From: Candidatus Altimarinota bacterium
GTDB lineage: Bacteria; Patescibacteriota; Gracilibacteria; JANQMV01
DNA: 40,000 nucleotides
Assembly: GCA_028279865.1 (NCBI GenBank)
Contig: JANQMV010000004.1
Coordinates: 10,602 to 50,601 of the forward strand
Direction of reading: 5' to 3'
Made by a program: the position numbers and the translations under genes. The notes beneath the pieces were generated by a model. It did no database searches. It was given only the letters and a program-made list of their open reading frames with translations, and was not told the DNA's origin. This document shows, in pieces, positions 10,597-35,170 of the stretch. Within the stretch, counting starts at the first letter, position 1, and every line of letters begins with the position of its first letter.

Positions 10597-10611
10597 CGAT
10601 AGAAAAAATAT

Positions 10612-21847: not shown

Positions 21848-21929
21848 TCGTTTTTAGAGGTTAAGGATAGTGAAGATTCTTTTCAAACCCGCACCATCGC
21901 GGCTAACTTATATTTTTTAAAGCGGAGAA

Positions 21930-21958
21930 ATTCTATAGATGTTCAAAACCAAAGTCAA
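21930..21958 (-). promoter_or_regulatory. Candidate sigma-70-type promoter for rplC and the downstream cluster
   Basis: Minus strand reads TTGACT - 17 nt - TAGAAT (-35 at 21953-21958, -10 at 21930-21935), ~80 nt upstream of the rplC ATG. Confidence 0.4.
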
Positions 21959-22240
21959 GGACTTTTTTTGGTTTTTTTGTCGTACTTAAGAAGAACTCAG
22001 GATTTTAATGATTTTACAGGTGAATAAACTAGGATAAAACAATAACACTTTCTAAAGATTAACACAAAAACACAAGATTTATACTTGCTGACATTTTACG
22101 TTTTAGCATTAAAATCAGTTTTCACTAAAAACGATATTCTAGCTACCAAGAACAACTGAAGATTTAGTTCCGAAAATTTTAAGCAAAGTAGATTTGCTTA
22201 AATTGATTCTATAAATATAAAATATATTTGGAACAAAGCA

Positions 22241-22268
22241 TTGACACAACTATGCTTTGTGTTAATAT
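22241..22268 (+). promoter_or_regulatory. Near-consensus sigma-70-type promoter facing the GC-rich island
   Basis: TTGACA (22241-22246) - 16 nt - TAATAT (22263-22268), preceded by an AT-rich UP-like tract. Confidence 0.5.
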
Positions 22269-22473
22269 ATGCATCACAAACCAGCTCTTTAAAATCATTA
22301 GAATATTGATAGGTAAAAATCTGTGATTGATCTGCATCTTATAACACTCACTTCACCTTGTAATTGGGTGGTAGTGATAGTTTCTTGTCTGAATTCAAAC
22401 ACAGATACTCTGCCTATCAAAAAGATTATTCGGGCTATCAAATTAGGGACAACTTATGTTTTCGCTAGCTTGA

Positions 22474-22492
22474 TGGCTCGAACCGGTCGAGC
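22474..22492 (+). other. Perfect hairpin GGCTCGA-accgg-TCGAGCC at the 5' edge of the GC-rich island
   Basis: 7-bp stem seen directly. No T-run follows it. It lies 39 nt upstream of the island ORF start. Confidence 0.5.
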
Positions 22493-22530
22493 CGTATTAA
22501 AGTAAATTTCCTACAAAAGGGGAACAATAC

Positions 22531-22971
22531 ATGAGAGAAGCATTTCTTTTGACAATCAAGGGCCTCGTCCTTAGCCTGCTCATTCTTTGCCTGAACACAC
22601 CCACCATTGCACAATGCGGCGGAGCAGAAGCAGGCGCGTACTTCGCTGACATCAATGGGAAAAATCTCGGGATTAGAATCAGTGCTGTGATCCTTCCCAG
22701 CGGGTGGGTCCAAGTGCTGAACAAGGATGGATTGAAGACTGGGATTATAATCACCCAAGGCAAGACGGAAAACATAAGCGAAAAGGTGTCCGTTAATGGA
22801 AAAACTCGGGGAGCAGCACCCTTTCTTATGCGGAAGCCTACCATAATCAGTTTTCCTGATGGACGCAAACTGGATGTAGTCAACAGATTCACCGAAGTTC
22901 GGGTCGGTGATACCATCATCAAAAAAACAGGAATCGGCGCCTACATCTACCTTGAAATACAGGAGGGATAA
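22531..22971 (+). CDS. Small secreted protein of unknown function, in a compositionally foreign island
   Basis: 146-aa ORF. An SD-like AAAGGGGA lies 7-14 nt upstream of the ATG. N-terminal signal peptide (LLTIKGLVLSLLILCLNTPTIA|QC). The sense frame has purine-rich first codon positions and G/C-rich third positions. TAA stop followed by two terminators. Confidence 0.6.
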   Translation: MREAFLLTIKGLVLSLLILCLNTPTIAQCGGAEAGAYFADINGKNLGIRISAVILPSGWVQVLNKDGLKTGIIITQGKTENISEKVSVNGKTRGAAPFLMRKPTIISFPDGRKLDVVNRFTEVRVGDTIIKKTGIGAYIYLEIQEG

Positions 22972-22998
22972 CGCCCAGAACCGAGGCAGAGTAAAACA

Positions 22999-23038
22999 GG
23001 CGGCGCGCTTTCTCATCCAAGTTGCGCCCGCCTTTTTT
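22999..23038 (+). terminator. GC-rich rho-independent terminator of the island gene
   Basis: GGCGGCGCGC ... GCGCCCGCC stem (one bulge) followed by TTTTTT. Confidence 0.6.
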
Positions 23039-23063
23039 ACCATACAATTTTTTATCTACTACA

Positions 23064-23097
23064 AAAAAAGACATCTCTTTTGAAATGTCTTTTTTAT
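23064..23097. terminator. Bidirectional terminator between rpsJ (minus) and the island gene (plus)
   Basis: AAAGACAT-ctcttttgaa-ATGTCTTT hairpin with an A-run upstream and a T-run downstream. On the minus strand it lies ~25 nt past the rpsJ stop and is followed by TTTTTTT. Confidence 0.65.
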
Positions 23098-23118
23098 AAA
23101 TACTAATTATCACTCGTT

Positions 23119-23632: not shown

Positions 23633-24838
23633 CTATTTTTTGATTTTAGATACTACACCAGCACCTACGGTTCTACCGCCTTCACGGATTGCAAACCTTA
23701 AACCTTCTGCCATCGCAATCGCAGAGCCAAGTTTTACATCCATTTTAATGTTATCACCAGGCATCACCATTTCTACTCCTTCCGGAAGAACAATTTCTCC
23801 GGTCACATCAGTTGTACGGATGTAGAATTGAGGTTTATAACCTTTGAAGAACGGAGTATGACGTCCTCCTTCTTCTTTTGTTAGTACGTATACTTCAGCT
23901 TCAAATTCTGTATGTGGAGTAATTGTTCCCGGCTTAGCAAGAACCTGTCCACGTTCAATTTCTTCTCTTTCAATTCCGCGTAGAAGAGCCCCGATATTGT
24001 CACCAGCTTGACCTTGATCAAGAAGTTTTTTAAACATTTCCACTCCTGTTACCACTACTTTTCTGGTTTCTTTGATTCCGACAATTTCAACTTCTTCATT
24101 CACTTTAACGATACCTTGTTCAACTCTACCTGTCGCAACTGTTCCACGTCCTTTGATTGAGAAAACGTCTTCAACCGGCATTAAAAATGGTTTATCAAGT
24201 TCACGAACCGGATCCGGCACGTCGTTATCCACAGCTTCCATAAGCTCAAGAATTTTTCCACACCATTCACATTCTTTTTTACCACACATACATTCAAGTG
24301 CTTTCAAAGCCGAACCTCTGATAATAGAAATATCATCACCAGGGAATTCGTATTTAGAAAGAAGTTCGCGTACTTCCATTTCAACCAATTCGACAAGTTC
24401 TTCGTCATCTACCATGTCTACTTTATTCAAGAAGACAACGATATGAGGAACGTTTACCTGACGAGCAAGTAAGATATGTTCACGAGTCTGAGGCATTGGA
24501 CCATCAGCGGCAGAACATACCAAGATTGCACCATCCATTTGGGCAGCACCTGTAATCATGTTCTTTACGTAATCGGCATGACCTGGACAGTCAACGTGAG
24601 CATAGTGACGTTTTTCTGTTTCGTATTCAACGTGAGCTGTTGCAATTGTAATTCCTCTTTCTCTTTCTTCAGGAGCATTATCAATTTGATCAAAAGCTTT
24701 TGCTGTGTTAGCTCCTCCGAAAGCAGCTGCAAGAACGTTTGTAATTGCTGCTGTTAATGTTGTTTTTCCGTGATCAACGTGACCGATCGTACCTACATTC
24801 ACATGCGGTTTACTACGATCAAATGTAGCGTCTGCCAT
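23633..24838 (-). CDS. tuf: Elongation factor Tu with a Cys4 insertion in domain I
   Basis: 401-aa ORF with [15 protein letters not shown] and NKVD motifs. Contains an unusual [14 protein letters not shown] segment. Confidence 0.95.
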
Positions 24839-25045: not shown

Positions 25046-28000
25046 TTAAATTCAACCAATTATTGTAAAGATCACAGATCATCTATAAACATCACTCTCC
25101 TGATTGTAATCAATGTTTATGTAATAAAAGAGGTCGTTTTGATCATTTTCAATCCGGCTACCATGTGAAACACCTGTATCAGCCGTACTTGAGAGAGTGC
25201 CGAACGAATTGACTGTGACAGCAGTACTTGTTAGAGCCCAACCAAAACGATTTTCAACATTTTTAGCATCACCTGTAAGTAATTGATTGCCGGTGTTTGT
25301 TGTTCCGTCCAAGACAGCCGATCAGGTCGCAGAATGTCCTGACAAGGCTATACGTAGGGAATATCAATTTTCGTTGTTTGTACTTACGGTTACCGTGTTT
25401 TTTTGTGTGACAGCACCTCCTGTTCCCGCCCAGTTTTGCCCCATTTGAAAGTCAGGGTCAATATTGAAAACCACCGAACCGGTATCTACCGAAGCAACCA
25501 AGGCTTCTTGAAGCTGAACGTTCAAAGCAACTTGTTGTGCTGAGATAGTAATATCAGCCAGACCGCTTTCCAATAGAGTACTACCTGAATTATAGATATT
25601 AATTGTCAATTCATAAACTCAAGTTGAAGCAGGATTTTTTACCTTATTATTACTAAAGCGCATTTCAAGCACGTCACCGACAGCGACACTGCCTGTAATT
25701 GTGGAAACAACCGTAGTTCCTGTGGAGTTTACAAGATCAACGCTACCAGAGATACTTCCGCTTGCTGATTGGACTGTGATATCACTTTCTGCCAAACTGC
25801 CTGTAAATGCATACGCGCCACTGTTAAAAATTACTTCCATCTTATCTCCTGTGTTTAGTTCAATGCTAACGGGAAAATAGACAATATAATTTGTGGTATC
25901 AGCAATACGAATGCTTTCTGCAGAGACAGACCCTCTTTCTCCATTTGTAGTGTCGAAAGTGAAGGTTGCCGAAGCTGTTTTTTCTTCATTTTGAGCAGTA
26001 TCGGTTGCACGGCTTTTAATTGTATAGCGACCTCCATTCGTCCAAACGGGTGAAATATATGTCCAATTTTCCGCACCATCAGCCAACAGCCAGACTTCAC
26101 TAGTTGCGACAAAGCCTGTTCCCGAATACCATTTGTCTGCGGTTAAATCCTTAATACTGACTCTAACGAAATCAACAGCTGTTTGGGCGTCGGAAGCTGT
26201 TCCAATAATTTTGGGTAATGCACTCAAATCATCTCCATCTCTCGGATAGAGAATTTTTGAACTTGGTTCTTGTGTTTCGAGGCTAAAAGTTGCAGTTTGG
26301 GAACTCCAAACACCTTCTCCACTGTCATCATCCCAAAACTTAATTCTCCAATAGTAGGTAATACCTCCGCTTAATTGATCCCCGGCATAAGTAATCGCCT
26401 CGCAGACTGTGTTAACCAAACAACCTGTACCTGACAACGCAGTTCCGCCAGAACCTGAATCCCAAAGAGTCGTACCTGTAAAAGTAGAAGCTGTATTGAC
26501 TTGAATTTGATATTTTAGTGCGATATCCCCAGCATCACTGTCTCGATAAATTGCGGTAAATTCCGGCGTTGGATTAGGGAGATTAATAGGGTTTGCATTG
26601 CTTTCTGTTTTTAAAGTATCGGGGGCAGAGGGTTTCGCGTTTAAATCTGCCAAAAAACTGGCGGTTTCTGTGCTCCAGACTCCTTCGTTACCCTCATCAT
26701 CCCAAAATTTAATCCTATAGTAGTAAGTTGTATTATGAATTAATGTTGCTCCTGAGTAAATAATGTCACTTGAGCGATTCCCTGCGGTGATGTTGGTAAT
26801 CGTCACACCTGTACCCGAATCCCACTCCGGACTTGAGAAATCGCTGTTGTCATCAACCTGAATTTGGTAAGCATTGGCAATATCGCCTGCTTCAGGATCA
26901 TTGTAAATTGCAGAAAAATGTGGAGTGTTCGAGGTGATGCTCACACCTGTACCGGATGTGCCGGATTGGGCGTCTGTGTCATTGACATAAAGTATTGTTG
27001 GCTCTGTCGGAGCCGGATCTTCAGTGTACTTTATCGCTATTTGATTTATTTCCGAAGAATCTGTCTCTCCGTATGGGCTAGATGGTGGAGTGAAGTCTGA
27101 TGTCCAACGGGCTTCACCTTTGGTTATACGGATTTCGTCAAGATAGCCATCGAAATAAGTTGAAGCTGTTGGAACCCCATTTGGAACACCAGCTCAGAAT
27201 GATAATACTCCATCACTATCGACAAAAGTTAATCCTGTCACATCTACAGTCTCCTGAAGAGTACCATTTTGAAATAAGTAAACAGTATTACCACTACGCA
27301 CCATGGCAATGTGATCCCACTGTCCAGCATTAACCGTACCAAACGTCGTGCTTGGCCCCCAAGATGATCCTGTAGTTGATGTATGAAACCCAAAATCAAC
27401 TCCTGACATCACATAAAGTTGAACTGGAGAATAATTAGAAGCAAGTTTTTGTGTCACGAGCGCTTGATGCTCCGTACCAGATATATAATTAACCCAAAAA
27501 TCAATCGTAAAATCCTCACTGCCAAAGTCCCAATCATCACTATCCGGAAGAGTTAAACAATCTCCTGTCCCATCAAAATACATCGCACTTTTGCCAAACT
27601 TATGACTGACACTATGTTTTATGTCTCCATTTGCCGTAACCACATGTCCTGTGGATGCTCCGAAAGAATTGTCTGTAAAACTTGTAGAATTTGATGTTTT
27701 GTCAGATTGCAGTAACAAAACCGTATTCGCATCATTACCTAATCCCAGATCGTACTTGGCAGTCGGTGGCATGAAATTGGAAGTCCAGCGAGCTAAGCCT
27801 TTTGTAACACGTAGTTCATCGAGAAATCATTTCCACTCACTTTGAGGACCTCCCGAGTACTCTGCACCAATCGTAAGCACAGAATCTGAATCAAGCATTG
27901 TATCACCTCCAACGCTATTACTTCACACGTCTTGTCCATCCAAATAAATTGTTATAATATTTCAATTTCGTACTAAAGCAACATGGTGCCAATCATAATC

Positions 28001-31000
28001 CCACGATTGTGAACTAGAATTAAAATTCTTATTTCCACTTTCATTCGACCAAAAATATCCTGTTAAACGATCTCCAATAATTCTAAGTCCAAATGATTCA
28101 TGCATAGATGTATCTAACGAAGTTATAATCCAAGGATTTACACCAATGCCTGATTCTCTTTTGAACCAAGTATCAATCGTAAAATCTCCATTACCAAAGT
28201 CAAAATCATCCGAATCCGGAATACTCAAATAATCTCCCGTCCCATCAAAATACATCGCACTTTTGCCAAACACGGAATTTCGAACATGCTTTACATCACC
28301 ATTTATAGTAATTGCATGACTGCTATCAGAATCATCTGCAAAGGCTGCAGAGCCGTTTTCTGCATCCGAATGAATTAGGAGTTTTGTCTTTTCGTCATTT
28401 CAGTTTGTCACATCATCATTTGCCTGCAAGCTTACTGCTACGTCCAAAGATGTTTGACTCTTGTCAAAACCGCCTGTTTCTACCCAGTCAGAATCCATCA
28501 CAGCAGCAAGGTCATCTGCGGTCATTTGATTATCACGATATTTTGTCGCTTGAGATATGGCAGAATTCGCTGTATCACCACCCAAAGTTTCAGCTAATTC
28601 CCATGTATCCAAACTCGCAGGATAAGATGGAACTGTAAAATCAGAAGTCCAGCGGGCGATTCCTTTAGAAATACGCAGGTCGTCCACATACCCATTTAAA
28701 TAATTGCCTCAATCGCTTGTTTGTCCTCCAACTTGCAGCGGAATGCTTGGATTAACCCAATTTGTTCCTGCACTAATGGAATCTTCAATTAATAATGATC
28801 CATTTAAATATACTTTTAAAACATTTCCCTCTCTTATAATTGCAATATGATTCCATGCATTTTGTATAACTGAATTAGTGGAACTTTGAGTGTTTACTTC
28901 AGCAGTCCCTGCATTGACCATTACCGTATATAAGTTACTATTTTCGATCCTCGTATACCACCTATTGCTGACATCTTCCCATTGACTAATCAAATATTGT
29001 GTCCCGGACAAACTTCTTGGATTCACCCAAAAATCAATTGTAAAGTCTTCGCTTCCAAAATCCCAATCATCACTATCCGGAATGGACAAATAATCATCCA
29101 CTCCATCAAAAGAGAGAGCGTCACCAAACTCATCTGGAAGTCCGGAAATTTTTACATCTCCATTTGCAACTGGTAGATGATTTGAACTTGAAGAATCTGT
29201 AAAAGTTGTCGAGCCTTCTGGTCCATCCATATTTAATAACAATTTTGTATTTATATCTGCAGAATGAGGAATCGTAGGAACTACGATAGAATCAGAATCA
29301 TCACTTTGAGGACTAGCACCATATCTATTATCATGCGTTATTTTTAGACTTTCCATCGCCCCTTCAAAATCATCACCATTCCCATAATTCCCAATCAATA
29401 ATGCCCCTGCAAACGTATCAACATTTGATTCTGAAAGATATTTAACCTGTTGTCCATTCACATATACGCCATATTCATTTCCAATTTTAATTAACGCGAT
29501 ATGTGTCCATTCATTATTGCTCAAAGGATGGTTTGTTCCAGTTATATCAACAATATATGAACCACCACTTCTCATTTCAAAATCTAAGCCACCACCATTA
29601 ATATGGAAGAATCTCCAAAAATTATTAATATCTTCGTACTGAGCTACATAACATTCATCCGTTGTTAAGTCAGTGTGTTTAACCCATAAATCAATCGTCA
29701 TATTCGTTCCAATATCCCAGTCAGTACTATCTGGCAAACTCAAATAATCACCCGTTCCATCAAAATATGCTGCCTGACCAAATCTGGCAGTATCATCCAT
29801 TTTCGTACCACCATTAAAAGTCACATCATGTTCCGATAAAGAACGATCTCCATCAAAATGTAAAAGTAGTTTTGTGTTGCTATCTGGAGTTTGGGCAGAA
29901 ACCGGCGGAGTGAAGTTTGAAGTCCAAAGTGCTTTACCTTTTGTGACACGAACTTCATCAAGTGATCCATTAAAATCAAAAGTTCCTGTATTCCATTGAG
30001 AACCTGTTCTTCCGTGTCCTCTTCCCACCTCAAATTTACCACCATTTACTGTTCCAGAAAGTGAGGTTGTTGTTCCAACAGATTGACCATTCAAATACAT
30101 TGTTATTGTCCCACTATTATTAGCAATAGCAACATGGTGCCAACCTGATTCCAAAAGCACAGAATTGCTAAAATCCGCAATTGTGTTTCAATCTCCCCAA
30201 TAAAATCTTAACAAATTAGAAGATTTTGTCAGCCTGATGCTCCATCAGTTACTTCAACCTACTCCGTCTGTATATGCTAGATGAATCCCATCGTTATTCT
30301 TCTGATTAAACCAATAATCAATAGTCCAATCAGTAGCAAAAGACAAATCCCAATCTTGTGAATCAGGGATAGTTAAATAATCATCCACTCCATCAAACTG
30401 CATCGCCCCACCGATCTTCCCACGATTATCTAACTTCGGATTTCCGTTCGTAGTAATTGCATGATTTGAAGGTGAAGAATCTCCTTCTCCGTGTAAAAGA
30501 AGTTTTATATTTTCATCCTGCCTGAGGTATCCCCATTTACCTGAATCAACGCCAGAAAATCCGGTCGTTGCGTCCACTTTGGAGGCAATTGTTCTCCAAG
30601 CACTTGCAATCTTATCCCAAATTTTGAACTCATTTCTGCCATCAAAACTAAGTGAATAAAAAGAATCTGAATCGTTGCTTAATTCATTTACGCTAACTCC
30701 GTCAATTCCTTGCCAAGCCGAAGTATCCACTTGGTCAGTTGATGTAATTGTAGTGTAGGTTTCCGCTGGCGCGCTTTCTTCAACTGTTCCTACAATTTTT
30801 AAATTGTCTATATATTGAGAACCTCCTGTTGCGCCACCCCATACAACGTAATCATTTCAATCGTAGAAGGAATGTCCTGTTATGTCCAAAGTTTGCCTCT
30901 GGGGCCAGACAAGGCTTGATTCGGAAGGAGAAGGGTACCAAGTCACTTGGTTACCAATTCTTTCTATTTTTACGTAATACCATGTTCATGCTGAGAAGCT

Positions 31001-34000
31001 AAAACCTGAACCCGAAGCGTAAATTATACTGCCTGCATTATTTGTCATTGATAAATTCCAGGTTGAAGTATCCTCTCAGGTTGGAATAAATTTTCAAAGA
31101 GCCAAGGATGTATTACCTGAAAGATTGTTTACTGTTAAGGCTCTTTCAGAGGAACCTTCAGGTCTGATCCAAGCTGTTATAGCAAAATCATGATCTAAAA
31201 CTTGCCCCCACTTTTTCGATGCTTCTGTTTTCCAATGATTAACATCGCTTGATGGTTTATACATAGAATGACTCCCTCCACTGTCAGTTGGCACTGTTGT
31301 ACTAAAATTAGCAGAACCATTCAACGAACTTGTGTAATCACCACTAATAGTGTTCAGATTATTGCCGTCAAATTTATACTCTTCTTCAAAGTTCAGCTTT
31401 GTTTTTACCAATTTAACTTCTCCTTCATCAAATTCCGTAAGATAAATTTCACTTACTACGCCATCAGCGACATGCTCGGACAAAATGACCTGACCGCTCC
31501 CACTACCTTCTCCTTTGATTTCTAAAATATCATAAAATGTTCCATCAACCTTCACCCGACTACCTTCGCGTACCTTAGGACTGTCAATAAAATGCATGAA
31601 GGCTGGAGGTGTAAAATTTGAAGTCCAGCGGGCAAGTCCCTTGGTTATACGAAGTTCGTCAAGATAGCCTTTGATTGACTCATTGCTCATTTTAGAACCA
31701 ATATATAGAGCATCTGAAACATCATCGAGAGCCAATCAAGACGACCAGGTTTCTACAATTTGACCATTGTTAAATGTATAAAAGATATCTCCGGATCGCA
31801 CTAAAGCATAATGGTTAAACCCACTACTTGAAAAGCTTCCCAAGGATTTTCCATTTGCAATATCCCATGATGCACTGTTACTGGACAACCAAGTAACAAG
31901 ATTCCCACTTGGAGCATCAACATCAATCAAAAATGGTCTATGTCCTGAACCATATCTTCTTGTAATTAATCCATTCCCCCATGATCACACTGTGCCATCG
32001 TCCTTATACCAAAAATCAATTGTAAAGTCTCCACTCCCAAAATCCCAATCAGCACTATCATTTAAATGTAAATAATCCCCCGTTCCATCAAAATAAAGCG
32101 AAGTGTTACCCAACTTATTCGCCCCAGTTGAATGTTGAACATCACCATTGACCGTGACTTCTTTGCCAAAAATTGATGTATCTTCAATATTTTTTGATCC
32201 ATCTGTGTTATTCGATTGAATTAAGAGTTTTGTATCTGCACCACTACCAATAGTTACCACCGATCCACTTGCCGTCTCAAAATGACCTGCATTTTCCGGT
32301 GTGAAATTTGAAGACCAGCGAGCAATTCCTTTGGAAATACGAATTGCATCCAAGCGACCATTGAAATAGTGATTGTAGTTATATCTTTGTACTCCAATAT
32401 GCAACATTCATTGACCGTTCAAAATTCCACCAATATGAGTAACTGTATTTAAAAGTTCACCATTAACATATAAAGAAAAAGTGCCTCATTCTCTTACTAC
32501 AGCCACATGGTACCATTCTCATTCATGCATATTGCTAGTTCCAGACAATACTGGCAAGTAACCAGAGTCATCATCCTTGCGAAATAAAGCTCGTAGAGTT
32601 CATCCTTGATGTGCAATAGAAAATGATGCATTCCCATCATTACCGCTAGCTCTACCTTGCCAAAAAATTATATTTTCATTTATTACATCATCTGGATTCA
32701 TCCAAAAGTCAATCGTAAAATCCTCATTCCCAAAGTCCCAATCATCACTATCCGGAAGAGTTAAATAATCTCCACTGCCGTCAAACTTGTAAGCTCCACC
32801 GTATTTTCCATCTGAACTGATCTGCGCATTTCCATTAAAAGTAATTTTGTGATTTGCAGCAGAAGCATCTCATTCAAAATCTAGCAATAGATTTGTATTT
32901 GTAGTAACTGTAGCCGGAACAGTTGGAGGCATAAATCCTGTTTCCCAGAGTGCTTCTCCTTTGGTAATTCGAAGGTCATCCATATAGCCAGTAAAAGGAC
33001 TACTTACTCCATTGTAAATGCCTACATACAAATTTGATGAACTTCCCGAAACAGCTCCCAGATGAGATTGAGGAAAGTTGCTGTCTAATACACCATCAAT
33101 ATAAATTGAAATATCATCCTGGTCTCTGGTTATTGCAAAATGAGTCCATTGATTCAGAGGCACAGTATTTGTCGTCGTATTTACCCAAACATCATTTGGT
33201 CCTAAATACAGAGATATTTGCCTACTGGCAGTAAGCCACACTTGAAAGCCTCTGTTGGCATATGCGCCTTGCTCTAAAATCACGCTAGAACCACCCTTCG
33301 TGTAAATCCACCCATCAATCGTAAAATCTCCATTACCAAAGTCAAAATCATCCGAATCGGGAATACTCAAATAGTCCCCATTCCCATCAAAATAGATTGT
33401 ATCGCCAAAAATATTACTAAATCCTGTAATTTTAGAATCACCCACAGCATTTACTGCATGAACTGTGTTTCCACTATCAGTAAAGCTTGTTGAACCTTCT
33501 GCCCCATCCGCATGAATCAATAGCTTCGTATTCGTATCTGAATTCACTGCAGAAGTCGCCGGAGTAAAATTAGCAATCCAACGAGCATCACCTTTGGTAA
33601 TACGAATATCATCCATATAACCTTTAAAATCAAGTGCTGGGAAATTTGCATATGATCCGATCACTAAATCAGAGATCTCTCCCGTATGATTTCCGGAAGC
33701 CGATGTATCAGTCATTGTGATTTTGCCGTCAAGAAACAAACGTGCAGTACTGCCTGATCTGTTTAAAGCTACATGATACCATTTGTGTGTTTCTAAGTTA
33801 TTCCCAACATTATTCATACTAATCACATCATTCCCACCAGCATAAATATATGCTGCCAAATTACCAGCCGGTTGCATCATAATGCGAATATTCCCATTAT
33901 GACGAGTTGATCCGCCTGTTCCTCCATTTTCCTGACTTGCATGAGGATAATCCTCTCTCGAAATCAATATTTGCTCCCCGATTTGCTCGAAATATACCCA

Positions 34001-35131
34001 AAAATCAATCGCAAAATCACCCGTACCAAAACTCCAATCAGCATGATCTGGAATTTCAAGATAATCTCCTGCTCCATCAAAATAAACTGCTTCGGCAAAC
34101 TTGGTTGTATTTGTAATTACCGGATCACCATTTACCGTCACATCATGCCCCGTATTCCCCCGATCTCCATCGGCGTGTAAAAGAAGTTGTGTCTGCGCAT
34201 CGCTTGAATATTCTCCTACTCCATCATTTACCCAATTTGTAATCTTACGTTTGACATCTTCTTGAGTATAATTTGCCTCATCCGTGAAGGTGATATAAGT
34301 CGTGGGGTCCAAAGCAATGGGATAAACCAAGCCTTTTGTATCGGCAAAAAGCTGAAGCCTTATCAACTCTTCTGTTTGGCTCAAAATTGTCCAGTAAGCC
34401 TTCTCGCTACGTTTGCCTTCTGCATCCAGCATGTATGGCGCCGGATGATACATTGCGACATTTCCTTTCGAATTGTAGTAATTGACTTTTCCTTTTTCTA
34501 TTACTGCGAATAAGTCTGTCTTAATTTCGTATTCAAATTGCCATTTTCCCTCACCGATATAACCGATATTAGTCGCATCAGTACGAGCAGAGTTTGCGGT
34601 AGCAGGTGTAGTGGAGAAATCTTCCTCAGGATCTCTGTTAAGAGGAATTTCTTTCAAAATCAGATCCTCTTTCACCCCTCGCTTCACCACTGTTTTTAGC
34701 ATGTCAACATCATCATAAACCTCCTTGAAAAGCACCTGATTTGCACTCTGTTGGGCAACGGATGGGTTTGCATTGACAGGTGTGATTTTCAGCTGCTCTA
34801 CTTGATTTTCAGCCTGAACTGTTCCTTCTTTGGCACGACTGGAAATAATCTCCGAAGAATATTTTTTATTTAGTTCAATGTTTGCAACTGCAGTCTGCGC
34901 AATAAATAAATCCTTATTCCCTTTTACTTTTTCAAAACTCTTACTCTTGTCACGCAAATCATCCATTCGCATTACTTCGGAAAGTTGTTTAATTTCCGGC
35001 GAGTTAATCTCAGTAGAAAATAAATTTGAAAGCCAGATCGAGGCAAAAATTGTTCAAGTTAATAAAATTGTGATCAAAAAGCTCTTTTTTTTCAGCAAAG
35101 AGAGGATTTCTTTATTTTTTATTGAGAACAT
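25046..35131 (-). CDS. Giant secreted/surface protein, ~3,361 aa under translation table 25 (26 in-frame UGA read as Gly). Signal anchor, then an N-terminal beta-rich domain, ~10 LamG/ConA-like modules, 2 FN3-like modules, an Ig-like module and a C-terminal region of unknown fold.
   Basis: All 12 track ORFs from 25079 to 34972 share one frame (end coordinate mod 3 = 1). I translated every gap by hand. The only interruptions are TGA. The first TAA/TAG in frame is TAA at 25046-25048. Upstream, the frame stays open to ATG 35129-35131 (alternative ATG 35165-35167; TAA at 35168-35170). The N-terminus MFSIKNKEILSLLKKKSFLITILLT-G-TIFASIWLSNLF is a signal anchor. Confidence 0.85.
26279..26938 (-). 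repeat. Two tandem FN3-like beta-sandwich modules inside the giant gene
   Basis: A pattern occurs twice: P.F(S/T)AIY.D..AGDIA..YQIQV...F...WDSG...Y.G..L....TYY(Y/W)RIKFWDD.G.EGVWS...A(S/T)F. Confidence 0.6.
27090..34192 (-). repeat. Tandem array of ~10 LamG/Concanavalin-A-like (Laminin_G_3-type) modules inside the giant gene
   Basis: Ten copies of the core motif (G/E)DFTIDFW(V) and variants (DFAIDFW, DWTIDYW, NMTIDLW, DFAITAW). Each is embedded in ...LLLH.DG...FG.A.YFDG.GDYL.IPDSDDWDFG..DFTIDFW...W.H.A..R.G....Y.NG...GY.D(D/E).RITKG.ARW...FTPP. Confidence 0.75.
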
Positions 35132-35170
35132 GGTTTTTAATAATTTATATTTTGATATTTTTTTCATTTA

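Follow-up and report, generated by a model that had tools for sequence, protein, structure and literature searches.

A giant reading frame beside EF-Tu

The window analysed here is a stretch of 40,000 nucleotides (positions 10,602 to 50,601 of contig JANQMV010000004.1, assembly GCA_028279865.1, Candidatus Altimarinota bacterium). It carries on the minus strand, next to the EF-Tu gene, a giant gene with 26 in-frame TGA triplets. The meaning of these triplets, and the lineage in which they are found, are the subject of this report. The main features of the locus are the following (aa, amino acids).

25046..35167, minus strand: giant gene for a secreted or surface protein, 3,373 codons plus TAA, with 26 in-frame TGA
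35165..35167, minus strand: most upstream ATG, the putative start, upstream of the first TGA
35129-35131, minus strand: alternative ATG (codon 13), also upstream of the first TGA
35018..35083, minus strand: putative N-terminal signal anchor, aa 29-50, KKK-SFLITILLT-X-TIFASIWLSNLF, spanning the first TGA
27053..34192, minus strand: LamG array, aa 326-2705, nine clear Laminin_G_3 (LamG/ConA-like) modules and one degenerate module
26282..27052, minus strand: two Ig-like domains (Ig_Rha78A_N), aa 2706-2962, Pfam PF25788, E=5.7e-20, 2 stretches
25049..26281, minus strand: C-terminal domain, aa 2963-3373, with orthologues in three other samples
25046..25048, minus strand: true stop, TAA; orthologues described below stop colinearly (TAA in L095, TAG in L096)
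23633..24838, minus strand: EF-Tu gene, directly downstream of the giant gene, a synteny anchor without TGA (NCBIfam EF-Tu, E=3.5e-227)

In a stop-codon scan, the minus-strand frame 25046-35167 includes 3,373 codons, 26 TGA and no TAA or TAG. The same frame is dense in TAA and TAG upstream of the TAA at 35168, and the remaining five frames of the region feature 84-147 TAA/TAG each. A run of 3,373 random codons of the same composition would lack both triplets with P ~5e-75. Taking TGA as a sense codon results in a single open reading frame (ORF) of 3,373 codons, which crosses 10.1 kb without any frameshift. That 26 out of 26 nonsense changes should be TGA by chance has P ~1e-13, given the mutational paths open in this ORF. 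The initial annotation had described one frame with 26 TGA, and its coordinates coincide at all sites with those found here, with no TAA or TAG met before the TAA at 25046-25048.

Sixteen of the 26 TGA sites are covered by independent Logan assemblies, obtained from two other sequencing runs of the same strain (L091 and L092), and all are reproduced (16/16). Only three base differences separate the window from these assemblies, at 30904, 30912 and 30934. They change codons 1422, 1419 and 1412, are all non-synonymous (P/T, L/P and P/T, respectively), and are found within 31 nt of a Pro/Ser-rich loop; they may mark a small hypervariable patch or a strain polymorphism. Codon usage of the giant gene is native, as relative synonymous codon usage correlates with that of the other genes (r=0.94), and GC content at third codon positions (GC3) is 0.29 vs 0.30.

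Standard-code gene callers had been expected to shatter the locus, and this is what they do. Public gene calls, NCBI-derived and Logan alike, use table 11, and split the giant protein into a dozen or more "hypothetical proteins". Pieces of 700 and 483 aa are on record as separate proteins of the NCBI contig, and fragments are similarly found among the Logan gene calls. If UGA is decoded as Gly, the interval is one intact gene, encoding a 3,373-residue protein.

From N- to C-terminus, this protein is made of a signal anchor, a lineage-specific domain, nine to ten LamG modules, two Ig-like domains and a conserved C-terminal domain. The N-terminus begins with MKK, followed by the KKK-SFLITILLT-X-TIFASIWLSNLF tract, and looks like a signal anchor, which would be lost if translation began at the ATG of 34972. 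No relative of the N-terminal domain was found among GTDB species genomes or in JGI metagenomes. Pfam PF13385 (Laminin_G_3) matches the protein in nine stretches (E=5.5e-158). A hidden Markov model (HMM) built from external LamG domains only finds ten modules, most from end to end, and runs straight across the TGAs. Conserved LamG motifs are kept in all modules, and 3,942 homologues are retrieved with E<=1e-10. The giant protein is most likely a cell-surface adhesin.

Meaning of TGA in paralogous modules and in an external profile

The nine clear LamG modules, which take in 15 TGA positions, have been aligned with MAFFT for comparison. The columns hosting TGA are dominated by Gly, and two of them (codons 2447 and 2658) are Gly in 8/8 paralogues. 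The alignment of TGA with a conserved Gly, claimed in the initial annotation, is found at the sites cited there, the columns being mainly Gly (8/8 or 5/8). Trp is never found opposite TGA, though several conserved Trp columns exist in these modules.

The external profile, conceived in the style of Codetta, is an HMM of 340 LamG domains from 120 unrelated proteins, from which the sequence of the window was excluded; an alignment of this kind had been suggested at the outset as a check. Over the 18 TGA positions falling in match states, Gly ranks first (posterior 0.999). Ser scores 6.9 nats lower, Cys 53 nats and Trp 64 nats, the lowest of 20 residues. As a calibration, logP(G) averages -2.00 over TGA columns, against -1.53 to -1.93 for the four GGN codons and roughly -2.9 for Ser codons. 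When 18 columns were drawn at random from positions of Ser, Asn, Thr, Ala, Asp, Trp or Lys, Gly was never the residue called. The single sites are listed below, paralogue counts referring to the module alignment and P(G) to the external HMM.

35054..35056, minus strand: codon 38, inside the signal-anchor helix; no homologue spans the position
32870..32872, minus strand: codon 766, paralogues 5/8 Gly; P(G)=0.28, top residue
32600..32602, minus strand: codon 856, paralogues 3/8 Gly; Gly top in HMM column
32519..32521, minus strand: codon 883, variable loop column, Asn top, Gly second
32486..32488, minus strand: codon 894, paralogues 5/8 Gly; P(G)=0.32, top residue
32408..32410, minus strand: codon 920, variable column
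31985..31987, minus strand: codon 1061, paralogues 4/8 Gly; Gly top in HMM column
31736..31738, minus strand: codon 1144, paralogues 3/8 Gly
31094..31096, minus strand: codon 1358, degenerate LamG-like module, variable column
31076..31078, minus strand: codon 1364, weakly aligned, hydrophobic HMM column (I/V/L), P(G)=0.03
30986..30988, minus strand: codon 1394, HMM column with Asn top, Gly second
30857..30859, minus strand: codon 1437, no homologue column; reproduced in L091 and L092
30254..30256, minus strand: codon 1638, variable column; reproduced in L091 and L092
30245..30247, minus strand: codon 1641, variable column; reproduced in L091 and L092
30188..30190, minus strand: codon 1660, paralogues 3/8 Gly; Gly top in HMM column
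28709..28711, minus strand: codon 2153, paralogues 4/8 Gly; Gly top in HMM column
28400..28402, minus strand: codon 2256, GGT in orthologue L095
27962..27964, minus strand: codon 2402, paralogues 5/8 Gly; P(G)=0.32
27923..27925, minus strand: codon 2415, Gly top in HMM column, 0.17
27827..27829, minus strand: codon 2447, motif WK-X-FLDELRVTKG, paralogues 8/8 Gly; P(G)=0.72
27194..27196, minus strand: codon 2658, paralogues 8/8 Gly; P(G)=0.42
25619..25621, minus strand: codon 3183, GGA in orthologues L095 and L096
25364..25366, minus strand: codon 3268, GGT in L095, GGC in L096
25322..25324, minus strand: codon 3282, GGC in L095, GGT in L096
25079..25081, minus strand: codon 3363, GGT in L095, GGA in L096
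25052..25054, minus strand: codon 3372, second-to-last, GGA in L096, AAT (Asn) in L095

Orthologues and a second gene

Orthologues of the C-terminal domain have been found only in Logan and NCBI metagenome assemblies, in three other samples; an alignment of the domain gave no match in JGI metagenomes. In the L095 orthologue (Logan SRR19843167, 63% identical to the C-terminal query) six TGA are the only interruptions between the contig edge and its TAA, and EF-Tu comes next, as in the window. L096 (Logan SRR22387900, 69% identity) carries TGAs as well. The annotated stop of its protein P0324 is a TGA opposite a GGG of the window, and read-through restores a colinear C-terminus. In L097 (NCBI GCA_024449895.1, 75% identity) the whole contig is open apart from three TGA.

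TGAs of the orthologues are found opposite GGT, GGA, GGG, GGA, GGA and GGA of the window, and once opposite TCA (Ser). Gly is opposite TGA at 12/13 distinct orthologous sites vs a Gly frequency of 0.10 (chance P ~1e-13), and TGG is never found there. The orthologues of the four organisms share 56-75% identity, and no TGA position is common to any of them, as expected for free synonymous exchange with GGN. GGA is not enriched as a source codon opposite TGA (19 GGA/47 vs 87/206 overall), and no directional signal is seen. On these sequence comparisons, TGA behaves in the giant gene as an ordinary synonymous Gly codon, exchanging freely with GGN between orthologues.

A second gene with an in-frame TGA is found in the same strain, ~7 kb past the left end of the window, on a Logan contig (L084) that is identical to the window over 4,001 bp. 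It is an ORF of 474 codons with one TGA (L084 4708-6132, placed also at ~1.1-2.5 kb left of window position 1), split by public callers into pieces of 96 and 350 aa. The product is rich in Lys and Glu, has no Pfam match, and has one homologue only among 5.8 billion proteins. The two sequences (46% identity) are colinear across the TGA, where the homologue has GGT. Four codons on, the homologue has TGA vs GGA of this strain, and the two sites form a reciprocal TGA/GGN pair.

A further gene, L090 75-1649 (NCBI GCA_003358065.1, PJEL010101416.1), lies on a contig with 29.5% GC and has 6 in-frame TGA in 517 codons (~1.2%). In the public collection these have been translated as Trp, according to table 4 (stored protein P0139). 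One of them aligns with Gly in the homologue of this strain; table 25 is therefore more likely, and the corresponding P0139 residues are probably wrong.

Paralogous modules, external profile, three orthologous loci and the second gene, four independent lines, all agree with the core proposal of the initial annotation, that UGA is a sense codon, most likely Gly as in table 25.

TGA in the other genes

The stops of the 47 other genes of the window are 34 TAA, 13 TAG and 0 TGA. An earlier count had given 35, 12 and 0. Its zero stands, and the TAA/TAG split depends on the small ORFs that are counted. Genes ending at TGA, the potential counter-evidence that had been pointed out, are thus missing among the 47. 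No TGA stop is found in 9.5 kb of flanking sequence of the same strain, nor was any seen across ~77 distinct genes of the clade. In standard-code sister genomes TGA ends 13/179 comparable genes (7.3%). Since the sisters use TGA for so few of their stops, 0 TGA stops of ~57 genes is weak alone (P ~0.01). The absence of TGA stops invoked as an argument for reassignment is real, but has less weight than was given to it.

In-frame TGA is missing in the 8,304 codons of 47 housekeeping genes. TGA and GGN number 0 vs 620 in the 40 larger genes, and 26 vs 310 in the giant gene (Fisher 8e-13), where TGA makes up 7.7% of Gly codons. The skew holds when the comparison is restricted to non-ribosomal genes (Fisher 4e-7). 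Clustering of TGA inside the giant gene was considered and rejected, as the triplets are evenly spread over Gly positions (chi-square p=0.34). Genes with in-frame TGA are 2 of the ~57 seen, both accessory and lineage-specific. A relative at 86-91% protein identity (JGI 3300033186 Ga0370204_100023, 37 kb, ~55 genes, ~20 of them non-ribosomal) has no TGA, either in frame or as stop. No Rfam match reaches the gathering threshold in the window.

Lineage of the host

A SecY search of GTDB species genomes retrieved metagenome-assembled genomes denominated Peregrinibacteria, Peribacteria and "Gracilibacteria", the best at 67-70% identity. The closest relatives stop at TGA at the homologous position in several genes, namely Map in L004 and L007, S8 in L006, and S19 in L002 and L004, the last ending in a TGA-TGA doublet. 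In a neighbour-joining tree of 25 proteins, the window is a deep sister (59-60% identity) of a TGA-terminating clade (L001, L003, L004, L006, L007, L008). The genomes of the sister clade are JAHJFD01, JAZDNJ01, JAJDCF01, JAFGTE01, CAZNDI01, JAUHWS01 and JANQKP01. In a SecY neighbour-joining tree, with representatives taken from 1.84 billion proteins, the window and the relatives L086 and L088 join the TGA-terminating clade in 98.5% of 200 bootstraps. The one recognisably recoded reference of this tree, P0236, has a SecY 39% identical to that of the window, and groups with it in 0/200 replicates. Having been translated with table 4 in the collection, P0236 shows "W" at three columns of conserved Gly.

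CGA is found at conserved Arg columns in 10/11 cases and CGG in 2/2, and the change of CGA/CGG to Trp of the SR1 type is therefore absent. Neither tree places the window inside the GTDB class JAEDAM01, and the trait of that class, UGA-Gly throughout the genome including conserved genes, is not seen in the 47 genes. The initial annotation implied a classical member of the Gracilibacteria (BD1-5) or Absconditabacteria. This attribution is not upheld, as the lineage groups with Peregrinibacteria-like TGA terminators, lacks the SR1 change and has no housekeeping TGA. The host is an uncultured member of the Patescibacteria (Candidate Phyla Radiation), belonging to the Peregrinibacteria-like radiation, GTDB class Gracilibacteria.

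Two observations on other contigs may be added. The GC content of the L096 contig, 43.7%, is nearer to the 0.41-0.45 of the standard-code sister clade than to the 0.32-0.37 of the window clade. If L096 belonged to the sister clade, TGA would be there both a stop and a Gly codon. In a more distant relative (L039, JAHJMX010000114.1, 'Old_saline.mb.71') the L17 gene (14993-15343) has one in-frame TGA, in a column that is Gly in 38/49 relatives, and no TGA stops are found at the locus. L039 may stand for a further lineage with UGA=Gly at low usage, among genomes nominally assigned to table 11, or the TGA may be an error. A scan of 80 relatives for long ORFs broken by TGA alone gave too much noise at GC-rich loci to be of use.

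Interpretation and alternative explanations

The host very probably decodes UGA as Gly, with the table-25 meaning, and the giant gene would accordingly be intact. UGA would be read by a tRNA-Gly with anticodon UCA, and release factor 2 (RF2) would be lost or inactive. The table-25 tRNA combines the UCA anticodon with the Gly identity elements G1:C72, C2:G71, G3:C70 and U73. The skew between genes could denote a young or low-efficiency reassignment, in which TGA would return through GGN-to-TGA mutations in genes that evolve fast and are weakly expressed, and would still be selected against in highly expressed conserved ones. The host would belong to a lineage with table-25-type decoding that has gone unrecognised and uses the codon little; its reassignment may be early or independent. 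A more specific history can be put forward only tentatively, and we regard it as somewhat improbable. UGA=Gly may have been gained separately from BD1-5/SR1, after the split from the UGA-terminating Peregrinibacteria-like relatives, and be at an early stage of codon capture. UGA would have been purged as a stop, be absent from core genes, and re-enter only in fast-evolving giant surface-protein genes, neutrally, as Gly, the positions differing among four related organisms.

Several points weigh against UGA=Gly decoding by the host. Only ~50 kb of genome sequence has been read. Scans for tRNA genes of the window, and of all examined contigs of the strain and its relatives, found none. A count of 0 TGA against 620 Gly codons in the other genes sets the host apart from classical table-25 genomes, and leaves room for incomplete or conditional decoding. 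Codon 1364 is the least Gly-like of the sites, and L095 has an Asn at codon 3372. The TGA of L097 at 197-199 aligns with Ser (TCA) at codon 2778 of the window (26834-26836), where two other orthologues also have Ser. The latter reflects a replacement of Ser by Gly or else a read error, the contig being of low coverage.

Among the alternatives, an incomplete or conditional reassignment is unlikely, yet less so than the others. A weak or regulated suppressor tRNA-Gly(UCA) would operate, RF2 possibly being present; the TGAs would throttle or gate the synthesis of the giant protein, and housekeeping genes would avoid the codon. The contrast between housekeeping genes and giant gene, the relative free of TGA in ~55 genes, and the nearest sister genomes still terminating at TGA all fit this scheme, and Providencia siddallii exhibits intermediate stages with prfB kept (PMC10540940). 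However, 26 sequential UGAs, at 90% read-through each, would yield ~6% of full-length product, so that with inefficient sites the full-length giant protein would be vanishingly rare. The even spread of the TGAs, and their unconserved positions among the four orthologues, resemble neutral synonymous turnover rather than regulatory sites, and no TGA stop occurs in the ~77 genes of the clade. Alternatively, a standard-code host may have recently acquired both genes from a table-25 donor, the giant gene being an undecayed pseudogene. Both TGA-bearing genes are indeed accessory and restricted to the lineage, the second has its only homologue in a TGA-rich, low-GC organism, and the missing TGA stops have only P ~0.01 on their own. 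We consider this origin very improbable, because codon usage and GC3 match the host, 10.1 kb are free of frameshifts, TAA and TAG, all 26 nonsense changes are TGA, and the LamG motifs are retained in all modules. TGA-bearing orthologues with different TGA positions are found moreover in four organisms; as these are diverged, and one is in the same place beside EF-Tu, the giant gene is old and maintained in the lineage.

The remaining alternatives have hardly any probability. UGA=Trp (table 4), known in Mycoplasmatales and several endosymbionts, is the commoner bacterial reassignment of UGA; it was adopted by the public collection for the related L090 gene, and would make the skew between the giant gene and the others less extreme (35 TGG elsewhere). 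Trp is nonetheless the residue that the external profile disfavours most, no TGA falls in a conserved Trp column, paralogues never have Trp opposite TGA, and the orthologues have GGN and never TGG. It is just as implausible that the triplets result from sequencing or assembly error, encode selenocysteine, or end a row of at least 12 small genes, though separate ORFs are what standard-code callers do give. Two independent assemblies reproduce the TGAs, Cys is far below Gly on the profile, and TGAs are found mid-domain, in single LamG domains that match the profile end to end.

Neighbouring regions

Modules are gained and lost in the evolution of the giant gene. L095 has a single LamG module and a single Ig domain at a place where the window has two of each. 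Its location is not fixed. It lies beside EF-Tu in the window and in L095; in a close relative (L086/L094), genes for a shikimate-kinase-like protein, a transketolase and a Band_7 protein are found upstream of EF-Tu instead.

The interval 21848-23118, between S10 and L3, is a stretch of 1.27 kb inside the S10 operon without a credible gene. It includes a GC-rich island (0.44-0.47 at ~22350-23100, vs 0.27-0.38 in its vicinity), where spurious ORFs of the two strands overlap, and for which Rfam gave chance-level matches only. Relatives host in this slot different histidine-kinase-like genes, one of 315 aa with HATPase_c in L086, and one of 408 aa in L088. A TGA-broken copy of such a gene was considered for the window and discarded, because the stretch is similar to neither of them. 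The usual place of L30, between S5 and L15 (13202-13450), is a gap of 250 nt without the gene; at this position L086 carries an inserted DJ-1/PfpI gene.

Comparison with known systems

The UGA=Gly code is already known, and the low-usage case of this lineage adds to it. As only 2 of ~57 genes are affected, code detectors based on coding density would probably miss this genome. JAEDAM01 is at present the one clade to which UGA=Gly is assigned, a few exceptions having been explained away as misplacements. Here the lineage is firmly sister to UGA terminators, lacks UGA both as a stop and in core genes, and exchanges GGN and TGA freely in one fast-evolving family. The pattern fits the codon-capture prediction for the period just after reassignment. 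The order of events (disappearance of UGA stops and of RF2, acquisition of tRNA(UCA), renewed spread of the codon) can be tested in complete genomes of the clade and of its sisters. If the origin proved to be separate, it would be the second of table 25, and a natural snapshot of a freed stop codon spreading.

Table 25 is described for Absconditabacteria (SR1) and for Gracilibacteria sensu Rinke (BD1-5), now in the GTDB class JAEDAM01 (Campbell 2013; Rinke 2013; Hanke 2014, PMC4032931). A tRNA-Gly(UCA) and the loss of RF2 have been documented for both groups. The window lineage shares with these the meaning of UGA, the UAA/UAG stops, a low-GC Patescibacteria host and genes fragmented by standard-code callers. 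It differs in grouping with TGA terminators (98.5%) and in the absence of TGA from 47 housekeeping genes. In Absconditabacteria, CGA and CGG have in addition been reassigned to Trp (Shulgina and Eddy 2021, PMC8629427). GTDB places BD1-5 and Absconditabacterales in JAEDAM01, and regards the class Gracilibacteria (the former Peregrinibacteria and their allies) as users of table 11; Shulgina and Eddy likewise noted NCBI "Gracilibacteria" that have RF2 and lack tRNA(UCA).

In the gTranslate preprint (10.64898/2026.05.24.727570), two orders of the class Gracilibacteria, JAYELJ01 and GCA-2401425, are flagged as table 25, without RF2, and the authors suspect misplaced JAEDAM01. As in the window lineage, UGA=Gly is found there inside a nominally table-11 class. 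Those genomes are TGA-rich, because they were detected by coding-density and Codetta thresholds; in contrast, the window lineage is TGA-poor, publicly called with table 11, and firmly sister to standard-code genomes.

In 'Candidatus Providencia siddallii' in-frame UGA is found in 1.3-20% of genes, vs >50% in completed reassignments. UGA is read there as Trp by tRNA-Trp(CCA), with prfB kept and some UGA still serving as stops (PMC10540940). The two cases are alike in the few genes with in-frame UGA and in having close relatives on the standard code; in the window lineage, by contrast, the meaning is Gly and no UGA stop is seen. Table 4 of Mycoplasmatales and insect endosymbionts similarly results from the change of a UGA stop to sense in an AT-rich, reduced genome, and differs in the amino acid, which is here Gly and not Trp.

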